Assembly (NCBI GenBank): GCA_046563655.1
Contig: CM102285.1
Coordinates: 7,502,001-7,566,000 of the forward strand
Origin: Yuukianura sp. NJ FZ-2021
Taxonomy: Eukaryota
Direction: 5' to 3'
DNA length: 64,000 nt
The notes beneath the pieces were generated by a model. That model saw nothing but the letters and a program-made list of their open reading frames with translations. It was not told where the DNA came from and ran no database searches. Positions 200-60,380 of the stretch are shown in pieces; position 1 is the stretch's first letter; the number at the start of each line of letters is the position of its first letter. A program made the position numbers and the translations under genes.

Positions 200-1072
200 T
201 CAATTTCCAAAACGTTCCGGTTTCTTCACAGTACGTCCAGATTTAGTCACAACCGGTACTTCAGCTTGAATGTCGCCTGCTTCCTCTTCATCGTAGTCAA
301 TGGTCGTCTCATGCTTGCGTTTCTGCTTTCCAGTCGGCTTACGAGCATCTCCGACTGTCTTCTTGTCCCCAATCGGCTCACGAACATCTCCGACTTTCTC
401 CGGATCAGCTTCTTCAGCTGGTAGCTCGTCCCTCCTCACTTCCAAAGGCACTAAACGTTGAATTGGACGAGTCAGGATTCCAGTTTTCGTCCGAACTTTT
501 GCGACACGAATTTCCCCGTCATTGCCAGGAATCAGCTCAACGATCTTCGCCATTGGCCACAGAATCTTTTTCACTTTGTCCAATCCCACAATGACGATCT
601 CCCCAACTTCAAATTGTCGAATCGTCTTTTCGTTGCCCCGCTGAACAAGTTGGCCCAAATAATCACTTCTAAATGCCTCCTTCAGTTCAGCCAGTAGTTT
701 GCCCAGTTGTCGTTTCTTGTCGTGTAGAGATGGTACTTTCACTGTAGATGCTTCTGGAACTTCACTTTCTGGTAAGTCGTGAAGGAACATTGCTGGAGTG
801 ATTGACACAAAGTCATCCTGATCCTCCGTGACGTATGTTAGTGGACGGTGATTCACAGCTGATTCCACTTCACACAAAGCAGTCTCTAACTGTACATACG
901 TCAATTTGGCGAATCCCAGCATCCTTCTTAGCAGATCCTTCACGCTACTAACCAGTCGTTCCCACCATCCTCCCCACCATGGTGCAGATGGAGGGTTAAA
1001 CACCCACTTCACACGATGAACTTGAGTTTTCTTTTCCACTGAGTCCCAGTTGATACTTTTGAACAAGTTCAC
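200..1072 (-). CDS. BEL/Pao integrase core and C-terminal ORF fragment
   Basis: WVFNPPSAPWWGGWWERLV, EVESAVNHRPLT, WPMAKIVELIPGNDG, RPIQRLVPLE. Confidence 0.9.
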   Translation of the reverse strand: MNLFKSINWDSVEKKTQVHRVKWVFNPPSAPWWGGWWERLVSSVKDLLRRMLGFAKLTYVQLETALCEVESAVNHRPLTYVTEDQDDFVSITPAMFLHDLPESEVPEASTVKVPSLHDKKRQLGKLLAELKEAFRSDYLGQLVQRGNEKTIRQFEVGEIVIVGLDKVKKILWPMAKIVELIPGNDGEIRVAKVRTKTGILTRPIQRLVPLEVRRDELPAEEADPEKVGDVREPIGDKKTVGDARKPTGKQKRKHETTIDYDEEEAGDIQAEVPVVTKSGRTVKKPERFGN

Positions 1073-1126
1073 GGCTCCGACGAAGTTGGTGCCGTTGTCT
1101 GTGTAAACGATGGTTGGTCTCTGTCT

Positions 1127-2665
1127 TCACTTGCTGAATCTAATAAACGACAAAATAAAATCTTCAGTTGACAGAGATTCAACCAACTCCAAATGAATGG
1201 CACGGTACACAGCACAAGTAAAAAGCACAATATAAACTTTGTCTTTGTTCTTAAGTGTCAATGGGCCTGCCAGGTCAATTCCAGTGACCTCAAATGCTCT
1301 TGCGTCTCTGACTCTTGGTTCCGGTAGTGGACAGATTCTGCTTTCCCCTTTCTTCCCATCAAATCTGGTGCATCTGACGCACTTCCGGATGACTTTCTTG
1401 ATGGCTCTGCGACTTTGAACTATCCAAAACTTCTCTCTGAGTTTAGCCATCATCAGCTGAGTCCCACCGTGAGAATTAAGTTCATGGGTCTCCTTAATAA
1501 TCAGAGTCACGAATGGATGAAAGTTTGGTAGTAAGATAGGACGACGGAACAAATCACTGTCTTGACGATTGGTGATCTTCGTTCTCACTCTAATGATTTC
1601 GTCAGTGTCCTTCTCCACTCTGAGTCCCTCAATGACACTTTTCTGAGTAGAAAACGATTCCAACTGCACAATTTTGATGAATCGACGTTCCACACAGTCT
1701 AATTCTTCTGCCGTTGGTCGTATGCTGTTCTCTCGTTGTCCAATCTTCCGTGTGTTGTTCAGGAACCGGAAAACAAATGCCAAAACACGCAGATTAGAAC
1801 TGTAATTGTTTTTCACAACATACCAAGGCCTAAAATCAGCAGTAACATTGAGAGTCGAGATTCCCCTTTTCCTCTCCTGGTCGACTGCTTCTTCGTCTGT
1901 CGGTTCTTCTGCCAGTGGCCACAATTCCTTTTGCAGTCGTAACCAACCGGGTCCTTCCCACCATCTCGACTCGACAAATTTGGTGGGGGTGATACCCCTG
2001 GAAGGTAAGTCGGCTGGATTATGTATCCCTGGAATGTGATGCCACTGCGATGACTGGGTCAACTGACAAATCTCTTTCACCCTGTTGCCTACGAAAGTCC
2101 CCCATTCGTTGCTCCTCTTGATCCATGAAAGTGCAGTAGTGGAATCTGACCAAAAGTAGCATGGGACGTTGTCCAAATTCAGGGCCGTCTTCACTGACAT
2201 TGCCAGTCTTGCCGATATGGTGCATGCGAGTAGCTCTAGGCGTGGAATTGAAGCTCCCTTGATAGGAGCAACTCTGGATTTTGCCTGTAGAAGATGAACT
2301 TTGACACCTTCCCTCGTTTCCACTCGTAAATACAGCACTGTAGCGTATGCTTTCTTGCTGGCATCTCCGAAAATGTGAAGTTGGTAATTGCCAAAGTCAT
2401 TGATCTTGTCCCCACTGACATCTCTGCGTAATTTGACTTTGTCCATGACTTGAGAGAGTTCAATTGACCAGTTCACAAATTCGTTCACAATGTTAGCAGT
2501 TACTTCATCGTCCCAATTCTTGTCTTCTACCCAGGCCTGTTGCATGAGGATCCTCGGAACGATGAGCACTGGTGACCAAAGTCCAAGGGGGCAAATACCT
2601 CTGTAAAGAAGACAAAATAACACGTTTAGTGATTTTGCTAGGTATTTCAGTAGGAATGACGTCAC
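1127..2665 (-). CDS. BEL/Pao RNase H (peptidase A17-type region) and integrase N-terminal ORF fragment
   Basis: LHIFGDASKKAY, AKSRVAP, IPRLELLA, WSDST, NPADLPSRG, H..H..C..C zinc motif, GIDLAGP. Confidence 0.9.
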   Translation of the reverse strand: MTSFLLKYLAKSLNVLFCLLYRGICPLGLWSPVLIVPRILMQQAWVEDKNWDDEVTANIVNEFVNWSIELSQVMDKVKLRRDVSGDKINDFGNYQLHIFGDASKKAYATVLYLRVETREGVKVHLLQAKSRVAPIKGASIPRLELLACTISARLAMSVKTALNLDNVPCYFWSDSTTALSWIKRSNEWGTFVGNRVKEICQLTQSSQWHHIPGIHNPADLPSRGITPTKFVESRWWEGPGWLRLQKELWPLAEEPTDEEAVDQERKRGISTLNVTADFRPWYVVKNNYSSNLRVLAFVFRFLNNTRKIGQRENSIRPTAEELDCVERRFIKIVQLESFSTQKSVIEGLRVEKDTDEIIRVRTKITNRQDSDLFRRPILLPNFHPFVTLIIKETHELNSHGGTQLMMAKLREKFWIVQSRRAIKKVIRKCVRCTRFDGKKGESRICPLPEPRVRDARAFEVTGIDLAGPLTLKNKDKVYIVLFTCAVYRAIHLELVESLSTEDFILSFIRFSK

Positions 2666-5420
2666 AAAACAAACTATCTTCGTCCTTGTCCCACTTTAAC
2701 CCCAAAACGTTAGTCACACACTGATCTTCACAACTACCACTTCTTTTCCACTGTCGAAGCTCCATCTTTGCAGTAGACAAAATTCCTGTAGACACTTTTT
2801 TAACCGTTTCAAACTCTTTCACTGTGTCCACTGCCAAAACCAAATTGTCCACGTACAAAGATTTGATGATGTGGCTTACGACCGATGGATTTTCGCCGTG
2901 ATGCTGGTTCAAATGATGAAAAATAACTGCACCCAGTAGAAATGGGCTACAGTTCATGCCGAACACCACTCTGTTGTGCCTGTAAATTTTAACGTTCTTA
3001 CGTTCTACATCGTCATACCACAGGAATCTGATGAAGTCCCTGTCCTCCGGATGAACTTCAATCATCAAAAATGCCTTCCGAATGTCTGCGATGATCCCAA
3101 TTTTCCCCATCCAAAATCGCAGTAAAATTGACGGGATGAGATCCAGTAAATTCGGGCCTTTCTCCAGGCATTCATTGAGAGACGGGTGTCTTCCTACTTT
3201 GCACGATGCATCGAAGACGGGACGAACTGGAGTAGTAACACTATTTTTGAAGACAGCACGATGAGGCAAAAAATGACACTTCGTGTTCCCACCGTCTGCT
3301 TCATCCTTGACCACGGAAATGATCCCCTCAGCCTCCCAATCGTTGAAAACTTTCTCGTAGTCTGAGTATTTTCCATTTGACATCAATTTCCGGGTCGTGT
3401 TCTCTAGTCGTTTCATCACAACTTCACGATTTGACGGTAGCACTGGGGTTTGACTAATCCACGGAAGTCTGACAGAATATCTCCCATTTTGATCACGACT
3501 CACGGTCTTCTGAAAATGTTCCAGTGCTTCTTGTTCATGCTGTTCTTTTGACATTTTCTCCACAGGGTCACGGATACCGAGTGTGTCCAAACTCCAGAGT
3601 TGACTGACGGTTGAATTGGAAACTGTCATAGAAAAAACAGACATAATTAGTTCATTTGAAAGTTTTCGTCTGTCAATTTCCCCCATCACTGCCCATCCAA
3701 GTTGAGTTTCAGTTGCAGTGAGTCCGTTCTGCAAACGCTGGATCTTCCCTGTCAAAATGTCACCTAAAATGTCCGCACCAATTAGAAATTCAATTTCTGT
3801 GGGGTTACGCTCGTCCAAGTCATTAACGAAAATTCCGAGTCGTTTCAACTCCCCGATCCATGGACCTTTCGTTACACGAGGTAACGATCCACACAATGAT
3901 TCATGGTCCATCACTTTCACATTTAGACAAAACGAACCGTGAACACTCTGCACCTGGAAGTCGTAAACAAAATGAGGCACATTACGCACTTCCGTTCCAC
4001 CAAACAACTGATGATTAATTGAGAGAGTGTCAACTGGTTCCAAATTCAAGTCCAATGCCGTTTTCTTCAGGAGGTAGCTCCGTTGTGACCCGCAGTCAAT
4101 TAGGACACGAACAGTCTTCGTCTTCTGACTTGTAGGATTCACCAGTCTGACCATCATCGTCTGTAAAATAACTTCATTCGTACAGTTGAGGTTAGACTGT
4201 GTGGTGACATCCGTCTTCTTCTGTTCGTCCTTCTGAACATTCCTCGGATTCTGCGGACACTGTAGTAGCTCGTCGGTGCACAATGGGCACTTAATGTTCG
4301 CTTTGCATGATTTGGACATATGCCCCGGTTTTAGGCATACGAAACAGGCCCCCTTCTTCTTCAACTTGTCACCCCGTTCATTCTTCGTCATTTTCTGTGC
4401 TGCATAGCAGTCTTTGGACGAATGTGACTTGTCACAGAAGACGCACGATGGTTTTGAATTTCCACTGAAGAGACCGGCAGCGGTAGGAAAATTTTCATCA
4501 GTTGACTTGACTTTTCTGGTTTCTTTCTTCTTGTCAGCTGATTCGAAGCCGCTCCGTGCCAGTTTTCGGTGTTCTTCGTTTTCAATTTCCAAACGGAGAA
4601 AATCCATAAGGAAATCCATTTCAGTTTTCGGTGGTGTAAGTACGGATCCGTCTGCACCAAAATTCGGACTCCGTTGCCATGCGACCAAAATTTCCTCTGG
4701 AAGACTTGATTCTACCATCGGGAACAGAACTACTTCCATGGCCTCCACCGACAGATTAAGTGACTCCAACGAACGAAGATGCGAGATCAACCGGTCGTAC
4801 AATGAAGACAAAGTCACTTTCTCACGAACACGAAGTAAAATCATGGAGATGACTTCCCGTACGTAGTACTGCTGTAGGAGTTTCGTTTTACCAAAACGAT
4901 TTTTCAAGGCCTCAATCGCCTTCTGATAATTTTTCTTCGATTGAGGGTAGCCCTTGATCAGTTCCTCAGCCCTTGATCCTTTCTCCATGCTCTGAATAAG
5001 ATAAGTAAACTTATCAGATTCATCTAAATCTTCATCCAAGTGAATCTTCTCAAATTGCCCCCACCACCCGAGCCAGTCTTTCAAGTCTCCTCCGAATTTT
5101 GCAAGTTCAATTTTAGGATACTTGATCGTTTTCTGCCGATGTGTGGTTGAGCAGTTTTCACTTGGGTCATGCACACTGCTGTGATGTGACTGCGGATAGA
5201 AGATAGCGTTGACTCTGACACGCACAGCACTCACTTTCAGTTGATACTCTTGAGTGTGTGTCAACTCTTCATCCAGCATCTCATCCGTAGTTGAATCAGA
5301 ATCCAACATCATGGACTTGACAGTGTCATCTGCTTCGTTCAGTTTGATAAACTGGCCTTCAAGTACTGCGAGAATGGTTTCCAATTGTGAATTGTCTTTC
5401 TTCTCCTTCTCCAGTTCCAA
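2505..5420 (-). CDS. BEL/Pao gag (Zn knuckles), aspartic protease and reverse transcriptase ORF fragment
   Basis: CVFCDKSHSSKDC and CFVCLKPGHMSKSC knuckles, LIDCGSQRSY, ADIRKAFL, RVVFGMNCSPFLL, YVDN. Confidence 0.9.
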   Translation of the reverse strand: MELEKEKKDNSQLETILAVLEGQFIKLNEADDTVKSMMLDSDSTTDEMLDEELTHTQEYQLKVSAVRVRVNAIFYPQSHHSSVHDPSENCSTTHRQKTIKYPKIELAKFGGDLKDWLGWWGQFEKIHLDEDLDESDKFTYLIQSMEKGSRAEELIKGYPQSKKNYQKAIEALKNRFGKTKLLQQYYVREVISMILLRVREKVTLSSLYDRLISHLRSLESLNLSVEAMEVVLFPMVESSLPEEILVAWQRSPNFGADGSVLTPPKTEMDFLMDFLRLEIENEEHRKLARSGFESADKKKETRKVKSTDENFPTAAGLFSGNSKPSCVFCDKSHSSKDCYAAQKMTKNERGDKLKKKGACFVCLKPGHMSKSCKANIKCPLCTDELLQCPQNPRNVQKDEQKKTDVTTQSNLNCTNEVILQTMMVRLVNPTSQKTKTVRVLIDCGSQRSYLLKKTALDLNLEPVDTLSINHQLFGGTEVRNVPHFVYDFQVQSVHGSFCLNVKVMDHESLCGSLPRVTKGPWIGELKRLGIFVNDLDERNPTEIEFLIGADILGDILTGKIQRLQNGLTATETQLGWAVMGEIDRRKLSNELIMSVFSMTVSNSTVSQLWSLDTLGIRDPVEKMSKEQHEQEALEHFQKTVSRDQNGRYSVRLPWISQTPVLPSNREVVMKRLENTTRKLMSNGKYSDYEKVFNDWEAEGIISVVKDEADGGNTKCHFLPHRAVFKNSVTTPVRPVFDASCKVGRHPSLNECLEKGPNLLDLIPSILLRFWMGKIGIIADIRKAFLMIEVHPEDRDFIRFLWYDDVERKNVKIYRHNRVVFGMNCSPFLLGAVIFHHLNQHHGENPSVVSHIIKSLYVDNLVLAVDTVKEFETVKKVSTGILSTAKMELRQWKRSGSCEDQCVTNVLGLKWDKDEDSLFCDVIPTEIPSKITKRVILSSLQRYLPPWTLVTSAHRSEDPHATGLGRRQELGR

Positions 5421-5432
5421 ATTGAGAGAGTT

Positions 5433-5850
5433 TGAAGTGGCTGCTCGTCCATCATCCTATTGTTTAGTATATGATTAGTTAGTTTAGAGATTAGGTTAGG
5501 GTGAGATGAGATGAGGATGTGTTTTGTGGGAGATTTGAAGAGAGGCGAGGTGGAGAGCAAGTTAGGATTTGTATAGAGTTTCAGATTCAGTCTGGATTGT
5601 GCTTGGGGAGAAGAGGGAGATCAGTGTACAGAGTACGAGAGAGATTAGTAGTTTCCAGTGATGTTCACATTTATTCTTACTGCTTATTAAATATATCTTA
5701 TATATTTAACCGCAGATGTGGTTTTGGTGTGTCAGCGAGTTCACTGATTGATTTGGTTAGTTGATGAGTCTGCGGACTCAGAGTTTATTTGGAGTCTGAG
5801 AGCGTGGCTGCGGCCATATTGGATTGGAGTAGCGGTGTGAGGACGCTACA
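5433..5850. mobile_element. Solo LTR inserted in the BEL gag
   Basis: TG...CA ends; 4-bp TSD AGTT at 5429-5432 and 5851-5854; removing it restores the gag frame (...TKLVN-SLNLELEKEKK). Confidence 0.85.
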
Positions 5851-22776: not shown

Positions 22777-24211
22777 TTGAGGAATTGTGAATTGGGAGTC
22801 ACTGGTTAAGGCATAAGGTTTGGTTGTCCCATCCTTCGAAGGGGCTTAAGTTCAAATCCTACAGCCGCCAAAGGATCCTTTCTCTTTCATATTGAATTCC
22901 GAAGAAGCATTAACTTTCTTCCTCAATCTCAATAATGCATTTTGTGTGTAAGGAGGGTTTTTCTGTATGCGTGTGAGCACTCTGCCACTGAAATGCAAAG
23001 GCTGGGAATTAAATTTAGACTCTCCACTTTCTCATCCCCTCGTCCTTAAAAAAATTCGGCAAAAGATGTTTCGGATCTCGTTCACGCATGCGCCTTATGC
23101 AGCACGTCTCATTATTAAATTTGTAGCGTACCGCTCCAACGGCAGGCAAACTTATTCATGTGAAACGGGCCACTATAGACGTTTTTTTGAAAACGAAAAC
23201 TTCCACTTATTGTATTTTGAAATTCTAAAAGAGAAAGTTTTTCCAAAGCGTATAGAACCTTTCGCCATTTACTGCATTAGTTTTCTCCAGCACTTTTAAC
23301 TTTGGATGTTATATAATTAGCTTACAGGAGGAGAGAATTTTGAGTGATTTTTTGAAAGAAAGTGATGGATGACGAGTGGTTTGTTTGGTGGAGTGAGTTA
23401 TTGAGGGAATTTGGGAATGTTTTGACTGTGTGATGATGTTTCACAAAGTTTGTTTTTCTACTTGACTCAGGGCTTAGAGGAATAAGGAAAAGAGAAAGTG
23501 GCGAAAGTTCTTTTGAGGTTTGACGGTGGATTTTGGGAAGATGGAGAAAGCAGAGCGCGATTCTGAAGGATTGCGGTTAGTTTTTGATGGAGTTCAGCCT
23601 CCTTTGAGTCTTTTCATTTTAAATTTTAAGTCAAGTATGGGACAACTTCTAAAGGTTTATTGGCTTTGGATTAGTGGTTCACTTTCACAACTTCAAGTTG
23701 GAACAGTCTCTTTTGAATTTGGAGTGAATTAAAGGTTAGGTTAGAGATTAGGCTAAAACTAGATTTGGTTAGGTTTGGAAGGTTGTAAGATGAATGTCTG
23801 CTGGGAAATTAATATTTGGAAACGTGTGCACAGGCTGCAACAAGGCAAGTCCACTTTCTCCTAATTTCATCTGCCAATTTATTTTAGGCCAGTCCCTTTG
23901 GAAGTCTTTGTCACAATGGTCTCTGCTCTGAGATACCCGGATTACCTCTTAGCTCTGACTTTTTGGCTGGACTTTGGGTTAGGTTTTAGTTTCTTTTTGT
24001 TCAACTTATCCACTTTGCTGCAGCGTCGCTGATTTAACCGATTTCTGGATGCCTTTTCTGGGTGTAGTAACGGGGGAAAGAGAAAAATGGCACGAACTGT
24101 TTCGTTTTGTGAGAAGAAAAATTAGATTCCTTGCTTCCTTGGATTCCTTCGTATTAATAAATGAACTTTCTCACTTTCCAACATCCTTCCGCAATATTTT
24201 GGATAGGCGTG

Positions 24212-25830
24212 AGTTAGACCCAAAGTGCCGGAGAAAGCACAGGGGCATTACCCCTCCCCACGCCGCCATTGTCGTTAAAGCGACAGATGCCATGATGGTC
24301 GCCATTGCAGTCGTTGTTGCTCGGCGACTGGTAGTGACGACTACCCCTCCATCCCTTCCCCTACATCCCTTCATCATCCCACCGATGGACCCGTCAGAGG
24401 TCAAGGTCGTTCTAGCCTTGTCTAGAATGGAGAAAGTGGTTGATTTCATTTTTGATTTTATTTTCGTGCATATGGCTGTGGATGGGGTTGCCTAACGTGG
24501 GGAGAATGGTTTATTGCATTTCTGATTCTATTTTCGTGTATATGGCTATGGATGTGGACATTGATGACCAGGTCAAAGGTCAAAGTCCTTCTCCACTTGT
24601 ATAGGATGGAGAAAGTTGTTGATTTCATTTTTGATTTTATTTTCATGCATATGGCTGTGGATGCGGACATTGGTGACCATGTCAAAGGTCAAGGTCGTTC
24701 TAGCCGTTTAACTTTTCTTTACTTTTGCTGCATCGCCGCCATTTTCGCCTGAAGAGTAGTTGCCAATTAGCAATCCTTGTGTTGTAGTGACTGGTTTGAT
24801 TTAAAATAGTACACAGTGAAAGGAGTTGTATTGGTGAAAGGGAATGGGACTAGGTGAAACCGGTTTTGTCCCATTGCATTTGAACAACTTCTCACCTTTT
24901 CCGTAGCTGGAGTGAGAAAGGGAGCCCTTGGTCATAGTAAATCCAGGTGAAGGGCTGGATTTTGTTTATCGTCAGTGAAATATAGTAGTTTGTTTTGTAT
25001 AAGTTTGTGTATGACATGGCGGTTACGTTTTTATTTTAACCCCGTAGATTCAACATTTCATTGTAATTCCTCTGCTGTACTGTTTTGTTTGCTCCAAAAT
25101 AGTGTAAAGTGAAAGGAGTTGTATTCGAGAACTCGGTGTGACAGAGGGGAACCTGTTTTGCGCAATTGCATTTGAATATCTCTCTTACCCTTTTCGAAAC
25201 TGGAGGGGAGAAGGGAGACCCTTGTCCTAATAAACGCAGGTGAGGGGACTTGATCCTTTATTAATTCTCTGCAGGAAGTGGAAGTGAGGGTTGAAATTGT
25301 TGGACAGGAGACCTTACGTGACAGGCCAATTGCATATGATCCAAGTAGGCTGTGAATATTTATCTATACGGACAGGTCTTCCGGATTTGTAGCTGTATTT
25401 TCAAATGGAACACGAGAAAAGTTTGATTTCCACTATGAAATACCGCAACAAAAAAACGCGGAACTAAGGCATTGGAAGGCTGCTGTGCTGTTGCATTACA
25501 CAAAAACCAGTCAAACCACTAAATCTCCCCTTACACTTCTTCATGCTTCTCCACAACAGTTTAATGGACGGGCTGCACTTTCTGAATTTGTGAAAGATTA
25601 TTACTGATCGACTACCAGAAAATCAAGAAATTAACGGTGCAAATCGAGGTAAAACGCTTCTAAACCTCCAAATACGTAATCGACACAACCAAATAAACGT
25701 AATTTTTTGCTCAATTTTGTAAGAATTGTCTCCGATTTCTAGCAAATTCTGAACTCTAAACTATTATTTCTGTTAGACTTTAGAAATGTTTTTACTATTC
25801 ACTTGAATGCTCCGATTTTTTTAGTATAAA
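24212..25830 (+). repeat. Left TIR of the mini-Polinton (~1.62 kb)
   Basis: Near-identical reverse complement of ~28383-30004, with a few substitutions and small indels (two of ~8 bp). Confidence 0.95.
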
Positions 25831-26097
25831 AAGTACAAAATTTGAACATTTTACTCCAACTAGTCGCTAAATTTAAAAAAAAAGCTCTGAGAAACACTGT
25901 TAAATTTGTCGAATTTTACACGTTTGCCTTTTTATTTATCCACAATTGCTCCGCGAAGCGATAATTAACAGTTTCAATTTAACCGAATTACGGGAAAAGT
26001 AGCTTTTTAAAACAATATACTACCGTTAAAGTCAATACCGCAGAAAAAGAGGTTGTGACAAAAGAAATTCTAGCCACTCGCCCCATTTTTTTGTAAC

Positions 26098-27417
26098 TTA
26101 AAATTTTTGCAGCTTCCTTTGAGGAGTATGTACTGTTCCAAACCGATCAATTTCCAGTTCTGCGTCTTGGATAGCCACGATTACGGCAGCCATTTGATCG
26201 GTCGTGTCCTTGTCAAAGCCAAACTCCAGTCGTAATGTTCCTGGGCGCATCACCGTATTCGTGTCGCAGTCAAAAGTGTTAATTTCAAAGACAAAAAGGG
26301 CGTTTCCGTCCAGGAATTCTGCATACGAAATGCCATTTCCTCCCACTTTTGTTGGCATAATCTTGCACAGCGTGTTGTATGCCATCATGTACTGCTTGTC
26401 TTTAAATATCATTTCCGGGTATACAATGGGATTTCCATTCAGAGTCAGTTTGATACTGTTTACTCCGTTTGGAAAAAAGTGAAACGGCGACTTGTGTATG
26501 GTTCCGTTCATAGCATCGAGCGTAGTCAAACCAATGCATAAGAGCCTTGGAGTTTGCTGGAGGCAAGCTTCAATAAGGACGTTTTTCATTCCTGGTGGCA
26601 ACATGCAAGCTCGAGACGTAACGTTGTCGAAACTGTAGCAAAATTTCCGTTTCTGTGCCAATCCTTTTCGATGTTCTGCTATAATTTTGGGGTTGACGAT
26701 TACTTTTCTGACAAAAAACTGTGCTTCTTCTACTCGAATAATGTACTTTTGAGGTTCAGTCCCCTCTGCTGTGGCGACAGCTGGGCCGCGTAGGCAAAAT
26801 TCTGGCGTGCTCCGTCTGAGTTCAATTGAAAACTTTGTGTCCGGTGGGAACAACTTTTCAATTGTAAAGATTCCCTGCAGCAGTTTTCCAATCATTTCAA
26901 ATGATTTGCTTCCTTTGGCGAGCTCCAGCCTTGCCTTGTAGCTCTTGTTGTTGTCGGAAAAGTCGCCTGGCTTGTCGCCTGGAAAGTAAATTTCCTTGGA
27001 CATGATGCTTGACTTTGTTCCGAGTCCATTTTGAAGCTGCGAAAGTACCCAAGCTTCAAATGGGTACATGCTGCTGTTTGATGTAACATTGGTTCCATCG
27101 AGAAATAATGCCACATTGTTGATGAAAGAATGGAAAAATAAATTTTCGGGAGCAATCTTGTCCTGGTCAGTCAGAACTGATCCGTCTGCTCTGCGAATGT
27201 TGACCAAAAATCGAAAGAACGAGTCAGACAAATCAACGTATTCTTTTGTAGTATACAGGAATTGTAGTGAACAGTCGTTGAACTGGGTGAGGCCAGCCGC
27301 GTCAATACGTATGTAATTGTCCAACATGAACGATACATCCGTATTTGTAGCCTGAAACAGGTCCACTTTCGGGTGGCCAATGACAGGCTTTGAGTCGGCA
27401 AATGCTTCAATTTCCAT
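26098..27417 (-). CDS. Polinton/Maverick double-jelly-roll major capsid protein (hexon-like, F54H12.2-like family), 439 aa
   Basis: ACC-ATG-G start; intronless and intact; motif order VDLF..T..S, EYVDLSDS, APENLFFHSFINNVALFLDG, MYPFEAWV..L..G...K, FEMIGKL..IF..EKL, ELRRS..FCL, PR..IG, SPFHF, GNGISY.EF..GNALFVF, GTLRLE..F, LEID matches the Polinton MCP pattern as I recall it. Confidence 0.85.
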   Translation of the reverse strand: MEIEAFADSKPVIGHPKVDLFQATNTDVSFMLDNYIRIDAAGLTQFNDCSLQFLYTTKEYVDLSDSFFRFLVNIRRADGSVLTDQDKIAPENLFFHSFINNVALFLDGTNVTSNSSMYPFEAWVLSQLQNGLGTKSSIMSKEIYFPGDKPGDFSDNNKSYKARLELAKGSKSFEMIGKLLQGIFTIEKLFPPDTKFSIELRRSTPEFCLRGPAVATAEGTEPQKYIIRVEEAQFFVRKVIVNPKIIAEHRKGLAQKRKFCYSFDNVTSRACMLPPGMKNVLIEACLQQTPRLLCIGLTTLDAMNGTIHKSPFHFFPNGVNSIKLTLNGNPIVYPEMIFKDKQYMMAYNTLCKIMPTKVGGNGISYAEFLDGNALFVFEINTFDCDTNTVMRPGTLRLEFGFDKDTTDQMAAVIVAIQDAELEIDRFGTVHTPQRKLQKF

Positions 27418-27559
27418 GGTGAATCGGTGGAATGCCGCGGAAATACTGTTTCTCACTTTAGTTTTGAGTAAGAAATGAAACTTGAAGCCTAGGCGCGATA
27501 GAAACACAACCGTGTGGGTCAAAATCTGGGAGTCAACTGAAATTTCTCAGCTTTTTGCA

Positions 27560-27940
27560 TTAGCTTTTTCCGAAACTTCCCCTTGGTGATTTACTTTTTA
27601 AGATTCTGCCACCTCCCGTCTGAACTTTGCGGCGTTTTTTCGTCTTTTTTGGCTTGACGTTTGAATCTCCATGGTCTTGATTCTGATAAACTATTGGTTC
27701 CGACTTGATTTGGGCCGGTTTTTTCCTCTTCAAAGTGGCAAAATGGCCGCCGGGTTGTTTCAATCGCGTAGCTTTAGGTTCATTATGAACCACTAAACCT
27801 CCTCCGTCCTGACTTTCTTCTGATTCTGTTTGAAAACGTACGTCCTCTTCTGATTTTTTTTGTGTTTTACGTAACTTTTTGCGAAATTTGGGGGAATCTA
27901 CAGTGTCCGCACCGACGTCCGTGTCCAATTTTCCTTTCAT
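27560..27940 (-). CDS. Small Lys/Arg-rich protein (126 aa), putative virion core/DNA-condensing protein
   Basis: ATG at 27940, directly upstream of and co-oriented with the MCP; basic tracts (KFRKKLRK, KPKKTKKRRK); QDGGGL, QPGGHF and QTGGGR motifs. Confidence 0.6.
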   Translation of the reverse strand: MKGKLDTDVGADTVDSPKFRKKLRKTQKKSEEDVRFQTESEESQDGGGLVVHNEPKATRLKQPGGHFATLKRKKPAQIKSEPIVYQNQDHGDSNVKPKKTKKRRKVQTGGGRILKSKSPRGSFGKS

Positions 27941-28382
27941 AATGCAAGTTTTAGCGAAAAATTCGAAATATGAAACAAAAAAACTCGACAAAATGCGTGT
28001 GAACCAGTCAAATTCTGAAACAAAACTGCCACAAATTTTGTTTTAACGGCAATGAATCATTCATTTCCTCAGCATTTAAATTTTTACACGTTTCGTAAGA
28101 ATATCTTGCTTCACAAGGTACTAATTCTGCAGTTACACTGCGAAAAATGCATCAGCATTGTCTGTACATTGCGTCTGAGGGATTAAAATCAGAACCTAAA
28201 CGCCATCTGACACAACAAGACTTATGATACAAGCAATCTATACGCTCGAAAGTAGCGAAATACGAGGGTGAGGTTTCCCCTCAGGCTTTGAAAAGTGGGA
28301 AGAAACTATTGAAATAAAATGAAATCAACGACTTGTGTCATGCTATGGCAGGCTAAAACGACCTTGACCTTGCTTTAATGCA

Positions 28383-30004
28383 TTTTATAGTAAAAAAAAA
28401 ATCAGAGCATTCAAGTGAATAGTAAAAACATTTCTAAAGTCTAACAGAAATGATAGTTTAGAGTTCAGAATTTGCTAGAAATCGGAGACAATTCTTACAA
28501 AATTGAGCAAAAAATTACGTTTATTTGGTTGTGTCGATTATGTATTTGGAGGTTTAGAAGCGTTTTACCTCGATTTTAACTTTTGCACCGTTAATTTCTT
28601 GATTTTCTGGTAGTCGATCAGTAATAATCTTTCACAAATTCAGAAAGTGCAGCCCTTCCATTAAACTGTTGTGGAGAAGCATGAAGAAGTGTAAGGGGAG
28701 ATTTAGTGGTTTGACTGGTTTTTGTGTAATGCAACAGCACAGCAGCCTTCCAATGCCTTAGTTCCGCGTTTTTTTGTTGCGGTATTTCATAGTGGAAATC
28801 AAACTTTTCTCTTGTTCCATTTGAAAATACAGCTACAAATCCGGAAGACCTGTCCGTATAGATAAATATTCACAGCCTACTTGGATCATATGCAATTGGC
28901 CTGTCACGTAAGGTCTCCTGTCCAAACCCTCACTTCCACTTCCTGCAGAGAATTAATAAAGGATCAAGTCCCCTCACCTGCGTTTATTAGGACAAGGGGC
29001 TCCCTTCTCCCCTCCAGTTTCGAAAAGGGTAAGAGAGATATTCAAATGCAATTGCGCAAAACAGGTTCCCCTCTGTCACACCGAGTTCTCGAATACAACT
29101 CCTTTCACTTTACACTATTTTGGAGCAAACAAAACAGTACAGCAGAGGAATTACAATGAAATGTTGAATCTACGGGGTTAAAATAAAAACGTAACCGCCA
29201 TGTCATACACAAACTTATACAAAACAAACTACTATATTTCACTGACGATAAACAAAATCCAGCCCTTCACCTGGATTTACTATGACCAAGGGCTCCCTTT
29301 CTCACTCCAGCTACGGAAAAGGTGAGAAGTTGTTCAAATGCAATGGGACAAAACCGGTTTCACCTAGTCCCATTCCCTTTCACCAATACAACTCCTTTCA
29401 CTGTGTACTATTTTAATCAAACCAGTCACTACAACACAAGGATTGCTAATTGGCAACTACTCTTCAGGCGAAAATGGCGGCGATGCAGCAAAAGTAAAGA
29501 AAAGTTAAACGGCTAGAACGACCTTGACCTTTGACATGGTCACCAATGTCCGCATCCACAGCCATATGCATGAAAATAAAATCAAAAATGAAATCAACAA
29601 CTTTCTCCATCCTATACAAGTGGAGAAGGACTTTGACCTTTGACCTGGTCATCAATGTCCACATCCATAGCCATATACACGAAAATAGAATCAGAAATGC
29701 AATAAACCATTCTCCCCACGTTAGGCAACCCCATCCACAGCCATATGCACGAAAATAAAATCAAAAATGAAATCAACCACTTTCTCCATTCTAGACAAGG
29801 CTAGAACGACCTTGACCTCTGACGGGTCCATCGGTGGGATGATGAAGGGATGTAGGGGAAGGGATGGAGGGGTAGTCGTCACAGCCAGTCGCCGAGCAAC
29901 AACAACTGCAATGGCGACCATCATGGCATCTGTCGTTTTAACGACAATGGCGGCGTGGGGAGGGGTAATGCCCCTGACATTTCTCCGGCACTTTGGGTCT
30001 AACT
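28383..30004 (-). repeat. Right TIR of the mini-Polinton (~1.62 kb)
   Basis: Mirror ORFs in the track (24458-24685/29531-29758; 24552-24752/29464-29664) have identical translations. Confidence 0.95.
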
Positions 30005-31299
30005 GGCGTGTCAAGATTAAATTTGATGGTGTGGAAGTTGATTGATATTGATCACGTATTCCTTCAATGCTGATTTTAGTTACGGGGTGTTTAATATTCC
30101 AACCTTAACTTAGTATGGTTGACTTAAGCTAACTTTTGGTTAACATGCTTGGGAAGTTTATAGTGTTTGATGGTTGGTTTTTAAAAGAACTGTGACCAAA
30201 TGGATTAGAGATTTGGACAAGCCTGTTCCTGTCGTGGGCATTTTTGGATTGGATTTGAATGATTTGTAAGATGGAGACAGAGATAAACCGTGGAATGACG
30301 AAGACGAAGAGTATGGTTTAGGATCTGTGCAGATCTTGAGCATCATATCTCTAGAGAACAATGAAATGTAACTGTGTCTACATCAGGAAGTGTCTTCCCT
30401 GTTACAAGATGTAGGAAGGATATGGAGAGGGGAAAGGCGATGAGAATGATCAATTGCGGAGCAAAGTGCATCATAAAAGTGTCATTGTCATTCTATCCAG
30501 TCTTCGAAAGGGAGACGAAGGGTTTTCTACTACCACTTTCTCCAAATTCCCCAGAAAATTGGCTGTAAAGCTCCTAATTCACGGAATCATAATTTCTTTT
30601 TCGAAGTTACGACATTATTCTGTTCGTTCGGGGAAAGTGCGCCAAGGAGGAGAGCTTCTCCTCCTCATCTCAATTTTAAATTGACTAAACTTTCTTTAAA
30701 AAGTTTTTTTTAATCTATTTGCCATTCCTACTTCAAATCCAAATTGAAAATTAGCTACATAGTTTGTTTCTAGTTCGATTCATCCATGTTCTAGTTTTGC
30801 TGGGTTCCATGCCATTTCGCCGAATCATTTACTACGAAGCGCATTTCGACGAATGAATTTCGTCGAAACGAATTAGTACGAAAGTCGATTTACTACGAAA
30901 TGTACTTTCCTTCGAAATCGAACTACAACGAAACGAATTACTACGAAAGTCGCTTTACTACGAAAGTTAGATTACTGCGAAAGTCGCTTTACTACGAAAC
31001 TTGAATTACTACGAAAGTTAAATTACTACGAAGTGGAATTACTACGAAAGTTAAATTACTACGACCTAACGTTAAATTTAACGTTTAATAGAAATTGTTA
31101 ATTTGAAAGAAGATGAAAAGAAGCAAAAAGCATAAAAATAGGTTAACACGTGAGTTAAAGTTTCTTACTATCCTCAATGAGCAAGGGTAGCGAACTGGCT
31201 ATGTGTCCGAGTGTGTTGGGCATTGGCGTATGTTAAATCCCTGGTTGGTTGATTTTTGTGAGTGATTTTTTAAGTGATTTTAAAACTGGTGTTCAAAAT

Positions 31300-58578: not shown

Positions 58579-59221
58579 GTGAGACAGCAACGTCTTTTGT
58601 TTTGACAACCACATTCATCTCCCTTAGTCTTGACGTTTTCATGAATTTTGTTCAACGAGCTTACTCCTAGCAGCTCGCTACCTCCGGGCAATTAGAGTTA
58701 TACCTTGTCAACTTGTTGCTGTTCGTATCAATTTCAGCGTAATACTTTCTTCCTTCCATGAACGTATTGAGTGCACTTCATTCAACAACAGAATTCGAGA
58801 CTCAACAAAATATTACTTTTTGATTCAATCTACTTAGACTAATTAATTACTTAGTAGTAGATCTTCTAGTAGAAGAATAGAGAAATGAAGTCCATTTCTT
58901 GTCCAAAGTTAGAGTGTGTTCGTGGGGCCTACTGTGTTTTAAGTTTTTGGAAATATTTTTCTTTTTGATGACAAATTTGAATAGAAGTTTTTGGAAACCC
59001 AGTCGTAAGATTTAAAAGTTGACATTTTTGAACTTGTGCATGTGCAGTGTGCACTTCTTGGAAAAAGTAAGCCCTAAGTCCTAAGATTTAAGATTCGGAG
59101 TTAAAAAAAAAACTCTTTCTGCGTGCACACGTCCTCAACGCAAGGAAGGACGTTAGGGAAGCGGAATTTGTAGTTTATTATATTTTGGAATAATTTTTAT
59201 TTGAAATTGTAATGTCCACAG

Positions 59222-59997
59222 GTTATCCAATTGTGAATGACCCCCTGTACAATCATCCAGTTTTTGGTCCGGAGAAAGGGAAGGGAGGTATCATGGGAAA
59301 GACGGACGAGGCCTTGATCGCTGAACTCATTTCCATTCATAACGCAGAGAATTGGTTGGGAATTGAAGGCGAAGAAGCTGGCGGAGTGGCTGGCGTGGAC
59401 ATCTTTGGACCTCCGCTTCCTCTTGTGGGCACGTTGTCCCCGTCTCCAGAAGATCCAATTCTGATTCCTGGACCATCATTTACGACAGGAGACACTTCCA
59501 CACTCCGACTAGACAGCTCTTGCGGTTTGAGCCGTGACATGAATTCCACCGATGTGCTATCAACGATGAGCCAAGGTGAAAGCTCCATCTGCCCAGGCCT
59601 AGGAAACACTGATGGTCTCACGGCTGCAGTTCCAGGGGAAGAGGTGCAGACATTGGTGACGGGCAAAGTGACAGTGGGAACACAGACAAGTTCGGAGGGG
59701 GAAGAAGAGTCAAGTACTAGGTCACCCAGTAGTGACGAACGGACCAAACATACTCCAAGCTCAAGTACAAATGCAAATATGGAAGACAAGCAAGAACTTC
59801 CAGGAGCAGTAGCCTCGGCCTCCAATTTAATTTCAACATCTCAAACTTCAGCAACGGTTGCTTCCAGTAATTCTACGGAAACTACTTACAAAAGTGAACA
59901 GTTGACGGTGGACCCCCATTGTTATGAATGCAAAGTCAAATACAGGGATCCAAAGCCGAAGGACCTCGTCATGTACCTCCACGCTCTAAGCTATCGG
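59222..59997 (+). CDS. RPUSD2: RluA/RPUSD2-like exon (GYPIVNDPLY...MYLHALSYR)
   Basis: GYPIVNDPLYN, long S/T-rich linker, DPHCYECK, MYLHA; |GTAAGT donor. Confidence 0.93.
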
Positions 59998-60380
59998 GTA
60001 AGTAGTCACCATTTTAAAATGTTTTTAAAACCTAAAATCCGAAAACCTGGCAATTCACATTTTACCGTCCGAATTTTCTCCACAAATCTACATGCATGGT
60101 AGATCGAAACAATGTGCAAAGAATTTGTCGGTTATGAGTGAATTACAAACGGAAGCGCAGGCTAGGAAAGCTTAAGTATGAAAGTAATGTTTAATCATAA
60201 AACAAGGTATTGGAATCAAGTGAAAGTCAGAGTGAAAGCACGACGGTTCTTCCGTATGCTGCCTGGAATGATTCATATGTGGGCATCCGGCTGGAAATCT
60301 AATAACCATTAGTGAACTCCCGGTGAAGAAAAAGAAGTTAAAGTTTTGGTAATGAAAGGAATTTCATTCTTACTTTCCAG

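Follow-up and report, generated by a model that had tools for sequence, protein, structure and literature searches.

Limits, terminal repeats and gene content of the insertion

The stretch of DNA analyzed here, termed the window in the following (64,000 nt of contig CM102285.1 from Yuukianura sp. NJ FZ-2021; all coordinates are window positions), contains a discrete insertion of 5,793 bp (24212-30004) with the terminal structures of a Polinton and two putative virion genes, a major capsid protein (MCP) gene and a small basic open reading frame (ORF). On both sides the insertion is bordered by the hexamer GGCGTG (24206-24211 on the left, 30005-30010 on the right), which was read directly as a target-site duplication (TSD) and is present as a single copy in the empty-site contig of a public sequencing run (X1, see below). 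The element begins with 5'-AGTTAGACCC and terminates with GGGTCTAACT-3', i.e. its ends are of the AG...CT type (AGTTAG...CTAACT); AG termini are said to have been given by Kapitonov and Jurka in 2006 as a defining mark of the Polinton family. Two long terminal inverted repeats (TIRs), which make up 56% of the element length, enclose a unique core: the left arm (24212-25822, forward strand, 1,611 nt) is paired with the right arm (28395-30004, reverse strand) by four collinear inverted-repeat blocks (I1-I4; 594, 492, 344 and 182 nt) of 98-100% complementarity, and the assignment of both arms is further based on their direct alignment and on the terminal 25-mer. The latter has exactly two matches in the window, in inverted orientation and one per element end (two matches in 0 of 100 shuffles), and no match in the viral contig collection.

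According to the direct alignment the two arms are approximately 99% identical (13 substitutions and three indels of 1, 8 and 8 nt over 1,619 columns). Their first 25 nt are identical, and seven of the substitutions, a 3-nt block at positions 26-28 among them, fall in the outermost 122 nt (24212-24333, mirrored at 29883-30004); the outermost TIR also varies in other copies from the public runs, as seen by loose ends at 24222, 24241 and 29975. Within the left arm, sub-repeats extend over 24384-25181 (three copies of about 104 nt at 24384-24666, and a pair of units spaced by about 293 nt at 24772-25181); they correspond to the direct-repeat families D2, D7 and D9, with D3, D5, D8, D10 and D11 as their mirrors in the right arm. 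No part of the element recurs elsewhere in the window (31 of 31 blastn matches of the element against the window lie inside it), and there was no Rfam match across 23500-30700. The core, defined as the region between the inner TIR ends (25823-28394), comprises 2,572 nt and contains both ORFs on the reverse strand. A previous interpretation made from the letters of the window (in the following: the sequence-only reading) had claimed an exact 6-bp TSD with AG...CT ends, near-identical TIRs of about 1.6 kb and a core of about 2.55 kb with two intact, co-oriented ORFs; the TSD was read at both sides and as one copy at the empty site, and the remaining claims hold with the measured values given above (the arm identity being about 99%, not 100%, and the ORFs having 439 and 126 aa).

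The MCP gene (26098-27417, reverse strand) is an uninterrupted ORF of 439 aa; AATAAA (25931-25936, reverse strand), located by motif scan approximately 160 nt past the stop codon, is a candidate poly(A) signal. Neither this ORF nor the 126-aa ORF matched Pfam (0 families) or PHROGs (0), and the PDB sequence search with the ORFs yielded noise only, likewise with profile A5; the Pfam family PF21738 was not matched by the 439-aa protein and reached a sub-threshold match in one of 30 relatives. The word-indexed protein search with the MCP returned seven matches (best identities 45, 44 and 41%), and the MCP family is represented in the library by 3,016 sequences at E<=1e-3, of which 63 reach E<=1e-30; their length is mostly about 435 aa. 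In the ESM Atlas the protein was grouped with animal clusters, in which 14-30% of the members carry PF21738 (DJR-like_dom). The AlphaFold2 model (eight-sequence alignment; predicted local distance difference test, pLDDT, 67.9; predicted template modeling score, pTM, 0.72) was compared by Foldseek with the PDB, resulting in 244 matches at E<=1e-3, among them the capsid proteins of Sputnik (3j26_A, 3e-14) and mavirus (6g44_A, 1.3e-13) and the MCPs of Paramecium bursaria Chlorella virus 1 (PBCV-1) and grouper iridovirus (SGIV). The best match in BFVD was R9XLG5 (1.4e-20), an uncharacterized protein of Cotesia sesamiae bracovirus, followed by adomavirus LO7 and, at lower rank, by adintovirus and MELD-virus proteins. 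Of the 45 columns in which 56 relatives show a conservation of at least 70%, 35 (78%) are retained in the protein. Judged by its predicted fold, the 439-aa ORF is an intact Polinton-type double jelly-roll MCP; the "MCP-like" assignment of the sequence-only reading, which had expected a double jelly-roll from a fold check, is confirmed at the fold level (AlphaFold2, Foldseek against PDB and BFVD).

The small basic ORF (27560-27940, reverse strand; 126 aa, 160 aa from stop to stop) has a K/R-rich tail and two Q-x-G-G-G motifs, and found no match in a search of 5.8 billion proteins (nine candidates checked). By tblastn it was related to ORFs located just upstream of the MCP gene in two of the loci described below (L011: 31% over 74 aa, E 0.005; L006: 46% over 28 aa, E 0.27), and the combination of two Q-x-G-G-G motifs and a basic tail is common to the 126-aa ORF and the pre-MCP ORFs of L010, L011 and L006 (alignment A4). 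It is read as a putative fast-evolving equivalent, by position, of the small ORF in front of the MCP gene of the relatives. From these sequence features we infer that its product may have a core or cement role and may be cleaved at the glycine motifs by a protease that is absent from the element. The hexamer TATAAA (28384-28389, reverse strand; motif scan), situated 6 nt within the core at the right TIR boundary, is a weak candidate for a TATA box, as about two such hexamers are expected by chance per 2.6 kb.

Relatives of the capsid protein and functions absent from the element

Relatives of the MCP with 23-46% identity were found at 17 metagenome loci (this number excludes the three closest MCP relatives, P0001-P0003), on one IMG/VR contig (L018) and at one locus of a metagenome-assembled genome (L019). 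Those with 23-33% identity adjoin genes for protein-primed DNA polymerase (pPolB), rve integrase, ATPase and adenain-type protease: DNA_pol_B_2 was matched in L007, where pPolB is located upstream of the MCP gene; integrases with rve and chromodomain are present in L015, L017 and L018, in the first two loci together with an ORF of 270-500 aa before the MCP gene; an ATPase of Adeno_IVa2/Pox_A32 type is present in L018; and Peptidase_C5 is encoded in L009, L013 and L018, in the former two directly after the MCP gene. The search of the viral contig collection with the single MCP protein gave no relatives, and the search with an alignment gave one distant relative, L018. This contig (1-12321) is an apparently complete, linear Polinton-type genome of 12.3 kb with TIRs of about 265 nt and the full canonical gene set in the order polymerase (1,164 aa; 31% over 308 aa, E 2e-44, to the DNA_pol_B_2-matching ORF of L007), ATPase, integrase, 273-aa ORF, 148-aa ORF, MCP and Peptidase_C5; its ends do not begin with AG. 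Among the six longest loci, no TIR pair was found in five and one 41-nt low-complexity pair in L007, short-read contigs being known to collapse such repeats.

The closest MCP with a readable context is that of L011 (46% over residues 1-130), which shows the order C-terminus of a penton-like upstream ORF, approximately 300 nt of 14-nt tandem repeats, small ORF, MCP. The ORF upstream of the small ORF/MCP pair in the relatives is probably the minor capsid (penton) protein, by its position and by analogy to the penton protein of Polintons described by Krupovic et al. 2014 (PMC4028283); the PDB profile search with this penton-like ORF gave no match, and the ESM Atlas only unnamed clusters. The contigs of the nearest MCP relatives have lengths of 2,602 (P0001), 2,577 (P0009), 2,675 (P0010), 3,048 (P0008), 3,249 (P0003), 3,254 (P0011) and 5,991 nt (P0002), i.e. 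sizes near that of the core or of the entire element; this is suggestive and may be coincidence. Two further loci (L004:125-1720 and L005:223-1832) share a block of 85% identity that reaches from about 300 nt upstream of the MCP gene to exactly its stop codon, with otherwise unrelated flanks, no protease or penton-like ORF nearby and a truncated MCP in L005; they may represent dispersed MCP-only fragments in another organism. The locus L019:1-8300, the single find among the prokaryote genomes scanned, lies at the end of a 267-kb Chlamydiia contig and contains an MCP relative of 23% identity, a sub-threshold Peptidase_C5 ORF and a 902-aa ORF; this Polinton-like stretch and an ORF for an endonuclease of long interspersed element (LINE) type are joined to DNA encoding NfeD and aldo/keto reductase, in which many overlapping long ORFs are a sign of high G+C, and the contig is probably chimeric or misbinned.

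None of the canonical enzymes has a counterpart in the element. Its other ORFs of at least 60 aa reach at most 92 aa; all of them are located in the TIRs, recur as mirror images in the opposite arm and result from the internal sub-repeats. When all ORFs of at least 100 aa from L001-L017 were compared with the 64-kb window by tblastn, 19 of the 20 rows fell on the MCP gene, and the remaining one was weak (E 0.009) and located inside a BEL/Pao retrotransposon at the left end of the window. The pPolB ORFs of L007, the rve-chromodomain ORF of L015 and the protease and penton-like ORFs of L006-L009, L013 and L015 were without match in the window; no ORF of the element has the size required for pPolB, and the sole integrase domains of the window belong to the BEL/Pao retrotransposon (1127-2695). 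As regards the packaging ATPase, no element ORF is large enough, the L018 ATPase not being among the tblastn queries. The non-ORF part of the core totals 871 nt, and no gene remnant was detected when both core flanks (454 nt before the small ORF and 275 nt behind the MCP gene) and the inner TIR were read in six frames. Judged from its reading frames, the element is devoid of functions for replication, integration, packaging, maturation and vertex formation, and the claimed absence of pPolB, integrase, ATPase, protease and penton extends beyond the element to the rest of the window. Since only two virion-type genes are encoded, the element must depend on functions supplied in trans.

Another interpretation, in which the element does not descend from a Polinton and is a small self-sufficient replicon or virus that relies on host polymerases and integrates by a different route, could refer to the size of 5.8 kb and the terminal repeats, both of which recall small linear DNA viruses. 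However, a replication-initiator gene was not found in the element (Pfam, 0 families; no further ORF above 92 aa), the relatives of its MCP reside in elements with pPolB and integrase, and a 6-bp TSD combined with AG...CT ends is the footprint of a Polinton; we regard this origin as extremely improbable.

Empty site, further copies and divergence between samples

Parts of the stretch are contained in five public runs from two studies, none of them listed as RNA, and four of the runs were compared: X1 (organism A) and X2-X4 (organism B, one sample). The comparison refers to the best-supported rows, with 951 further pieces and 126 loose ends outside of them. A contig of X1 (1,525 nt) joins 23605-24205 to 30005-30802 (601 and 798 nt), thereby skipping 5,799 nt; at the joint 24205/30005 six letters fit both sides, as in an unoccupied target with a single GGCGTG. 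The same joint is present in X2 (two contigs) and X3 (one contig), there more weakly with only 25-26 nt on the shorter side, and was not seen in X4. Other sampled genomes thus lack the insertion, and the added sequence corresponds to the 5,793-bp unit plus the 6-bp duplication: the insertion is polymorphic and entered the site as one 5.8-kb unit with duplication of 6 bp. This result also bears on the suspicion that the inverted duplication is an assembly artefact, long inverted repeats being a known failure mode of assemblers. The two arms differ from each other at 13 positions and by three indels, the outer limits agree with a perfect TSD as well as with the empty-site contig, which stems from an independent study, and a contig of X1 breaks exactly at the inner TIR boundary (28395); an artefact has next to no probability in view of these findings.

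The runs provide evidence for additional copies of the short form. In X1 the depth was 7.1 for the flank contig, 107-124 for the MCP contigs, 75 for the contig 27558-28422 and 119 for the contig 28395-28951 (Logan contig depths do not equal copy numbers); the last one starts exactly at the TIR boundary and, together with the contig 27558-28422, marks a branch of the assembly graph at this position. A contig 28201-28423 is present in X2 and X4. The left inner boundary is bridged by a record of X3 (record 18), which consists of 123 nt of TIR, a replaced stretch of 77 nt and 146 nt of the MCP 3' flank, and represents a copy that is diverged by about 10%. In two other X3 contigs foreign flanking sequence ends exactly at 24212, which indicates other insertion sites. 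Structural variants were observed as well: a joint of 25300 and 28263 on opposite strands, present in X2, X3 and X4 (one sample) and supported by 49-59 nt on its shorter side, corresponds to a copy shorter by about 650 nt (without 28264-28915), between the outer TIR and the region upstream of the small ORF, and in further variants 25758-26084 is skipped or 25822-25899 replaced.

Taken together, the read depth, the foreign flanks at the terminus and the inner junctions in samples with an empty site suggest that the mini-form itself is multi-copy and mobile. They are difficult to reconcile with a full-length Polinton that was inserted here and lost its interior at this locus later, so that the mini-form never moved. 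It is true that large elements are usually reduced by internal deletion and that the window contains only one copy; but samples with the empty site hold the inner junctions at about ten times the depth of the flank as well as the exact terminus on other flanks, and arms of 1.6 kb that agree up to the core at either end cannot arise by a local deletion, unless they were present in the parent. Because the inner TIR/core junctions are present in samples without this insertion, deletion after insertion at this locus is, within the limits of these contigs, unlikely, and as an account of the element we consider it very improbable; the simple post-insertion deletion named by the sequence-only reading as evidence against its own proposal is thus argued against.

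The divergence between the window and X1, counted from a chosen subset of contigs, was unevenly distributed: six of 1,195 sites differ in the MCP gene (0.5%), 15 of 557 in the inner TIR (2.7%) and 44 of 1,399 in the flanks (3.1%), the MCP gene being different from TIR and flanks in Fisher tests (p=2e-4 and p=4e-7, respectively); 10 of 865 sites differ in the small ORF and its upstream region. Such low divergence of the MCP gene points to constraint or, alternatively, to a very recent shared ancestry of the MCP part. The picture is mixed for organism B, where 12 of 923 MCP sites differ. Among the differences listed between samples, the single one in the MCP gene (26575) is synonymous, and those in the small ORF (27768, 27780 and 27815) are non-synonymous in all three cases.

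The surroundings of the insertion are marked as animal DNA by the BEL/Pao long terminal repeat (LTR) retrotransposon (200-5456, reverse strand), which is split into three stop-to-stop frames with DUF1759 and RVT_1 (2505-5456), Peptidase_A17 and integrase zinc-binding domains (1127-2695) and DUF5641 (200-1126). At a distance of 850 nt to the right of the insertion, an array of about eight copies of a 17/33-nt unit (GAAAGT...ACTACG) occupies 30855-31063; contig joints and higher depth in the runs suggest a variable, repeated satellite. A 302-aa stop-to-stop ORF at 59194-60102 (forward strand), without Pfam match and with an overlapping 167-aa ORF on the other strand, lies in a kilobase that is locally richer in guanine plus cytosine (GC 0.464 for 59001-60000).

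Derivation of the element and comparison with known systems

The marks of the Polinton family found in the element (the 6-bp TSD, the long TIRs with AG...CT termini and the predicted double jelly-roll MCP of Polinton lineage), combined with the missing enzymes, lead to the interpretation as a non-autonomous derivative: the element is probably a young descendant of a Polinton/Maverick (polintovirus-type) in an animal genome that is mobilized in trans. The inner junctions and the exact terminus with other flanks in empty-site samples, both recorded in contigs only, are what is expected for a derivative that transposes. According to this model, the parts required in cis would be the two termini inside the 1.6-kb TIRs; from the canonical genes only the double jelly-roll MCP gene and that of a small basic virion protein would remain. 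The protein-primed DNA polymerase and the retroviral-type integrase of an autonomous relative with compatible ends would copy and insert the element in trans. It may have originated by one or two internal deletions, or by copy-back (template switch) in protein-primed replication, from a parent with capsid genes near one end; either route would generate the layout of outer arm, core and inverted outer arm. A single copy-back event in a canonical parent was considered and rejected: both neighbors of the small-ORF/MCP pair are missing, and a penton-like gene is located upstream in L011. The loss of both canonical neighbors would require two deletions, or a parent with its capsid genes beside or inside a long TIR, as reported for the butterfly polintons mentioned below, from which a single deletion or a copy-back switch would produce the observed layout. 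The intactness of the capsid genes would then reflect youth and the chance position of the breakpoints, and selection would not be required.

Several observations weigh against this derivation. A helper was not seen, and there is no other Polinton gene in the 64-kb window, so that mobilization in trans is inferred; of the earlier proposal that integration was of Polinton type and probably driven in trans, the Polinton footprint and the dependence on trans functions are supported, and the helper integrase itself is postulated. Both canonical neighbors of the gene pair are lacking, the penton-like ORF upstream (present in L011) as well as the protease downstream, and hence the layout can be derived by a single deletion only from a parent with a non-canonical gene order. 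The contigs at the right inner junction extend only 28-29 nt into the TIR, which is below the 31-nt bridging rule of the tool. The retention of conserved columns by the MCP is mid-range for its family (62-98%), and the divergence of the MCP gene below that of TIR and flanks fits constraint better than pure chance retention, as far as sequence comparison can tell.

Alternatively, the capsid-only state might be kept by selection, if the element were a satellite equipped with a capsid protein of its own, acted as an interfering element or belonged, as one segment, to a divided polintovirus genome. A helper would then have to provide polymerase, integrase, ATPase, protease and penton, and an interfering form would compete with, or poison, the capsid assembly and replication of that helper. 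In favor of such a role, the MCP is full-length with most of its family-conserved columns kept, and its gene shows the reduced window-X1 divergence described above; the core has the look of a compact unit of two genes, TATAAA marking its 5' edge and AATAAA following the MCP stop codon, and retains no remnant of either canonical neighbor; the junction of the TIR to the MCP 3' flank is kept in the diverged X3 copy; and the contigs of the nearest MCP relatives (2,577-3,254 and 5,991 nt) are close to the core and element sizes. However, these points do not separate selection from youth; the insertion is polymorphic and its arms are 99% identical. The size coincidence may reflect the contig sizes typical of short reads, the sample differences in the small ORF are non-synonymous throughout and the only listed MCP difference is synonymous. 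Moreover, in the canonical relatives the MCP is always accompanied by a penton-like ORF and a protease, and a capsid without vertices cannot close. For the argument of the sequence-only reading that random decay would not leave a capsid and core module intact, and for its proposals of a multipartite segment, a satellite or an interfering element, the sole pointer is the lower divergence of the MCP gene between samples. Maintenance by selection is rated as rather unlikely, and the same low rating applies to its extension, a selected lineage of capsid-only mini-polintoviruses. These would be helper-dependent satellites or interfering elements that contribute their own MCP, or compete by means of it, and take polymerase, integrase, vertices, packaging and maturation from a full-length Polinton; the relatives whose contigs measure about 2.6-3.3 kb and 6 kb would then count as further members.

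Within the preferred interpretation as a trans-mobilized derivative, the closest known systems are the autonomous Polintons/Mavericks, including adintovirus-like ones, with which the element shares the 6-bp TSD, the AG...CT termini, the long TIRs and an MCP of the same family preceded by a small ORF. In contrast to them it is without pPolB, integrase, ATPase, protease and penton-like gene, measures 5.8 kb instead of 12-20 kb, and has TIRs of 1.6 kb that account for more than half of its length; a typical Anolis Polinton is given as 17.5 kb with a 6-bp TSD and a TIR of 584 bp (PMC3014272). Polinton-like viruses and virophages likewise have linear genomes of small size, which carry TIRs and encode a double jelly-roll MCP, and some of them have no recognizable integrase yet were found integrated (PMC11296320). 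In contrast, they keep MCP, penton, ATPase and usually protease and a replication gene, whereas the element keeps the MCP and the small basic ORF only; their characteristic combination of MCP, penton and packaging ATPase on one genome is not present here, and the sequence relatives of its MCP are of Polinton type as opposed to those groups. Defective adenovirus genomes with extended inverted terminal repeats are another known case of reduced replicons. A 9-kb yeast killer plasmid depends on a 13-kb helper (PMC13348850). Like the element, the adenovirus defectives and the killer plasmids are short derivatives of protein-primed linear replicons that kept both ends and rely on a helper, but they are episomal and not chromosomal insertions with a TSD, and the killer plasmid makes no capsid.

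The nearest precedents for mobility are polinton-related elements of butterflies: in a preprint of 2025-26 (bioRxiv 10.1101/2025.02.07.637071), polB-less and still mobile polinton-related structural variants are described for Pieris mannii, and TIRs of about 2 kb containing hexon and adenain genes for the polintons of P. napi and Euchloe belemia. With these the element has in common the presence/absence polymorphism, the flanking TIRs, an apparent amplification despite the lack of a polymerase and the location of capsid genes beside or inside long TIRs; they differ in that the variants exceed 12 kb and belong to a class listing integrase, ATPase, penton and adenain, with retrotransposon cargo, as opposed to two genes here. 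The Repbase entry Polinton-N1A_NV of Nematostella is reported to carry an MCP outside of the Maverick/Polinton MCP lineage (PMC11296320). Full-text searches aimed at such elements turned up no capsid-only or miniature Polinton in the literature covered; Repbase and the supplements of preprints may hold such entries. The "N" in the name Polinton-N1A_NV presumably denotes, by the naming convention of Repbase, a non-autonomous Polinton. The precedents, i.e. polB-less butterfly polintons and Polinton-N1A_NV with its MCP, lower the novelty of the element, which the sequence-only reading had overrated.

It is debated whether animal Polintons/Mavericks are viruses or transposons and how their polymerase-less copies move. 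A minimal, recent and apparently multi-copy derivative that consists of the ends and a capsid gene is a natural test object for these questions, as it shows which sequences are sufficient in cis, and implies that the replication and integration machinery of Polintons can act in trans. The comparison of its copies offers a simple test of selection on capsid genes of this kind. Under selection for the capsid-only state, the element would rank as the first partner of an animal polintovirus with a satellite-like or interfering role; without such selection, it would provide a clean example of extreme Polinton reduction.

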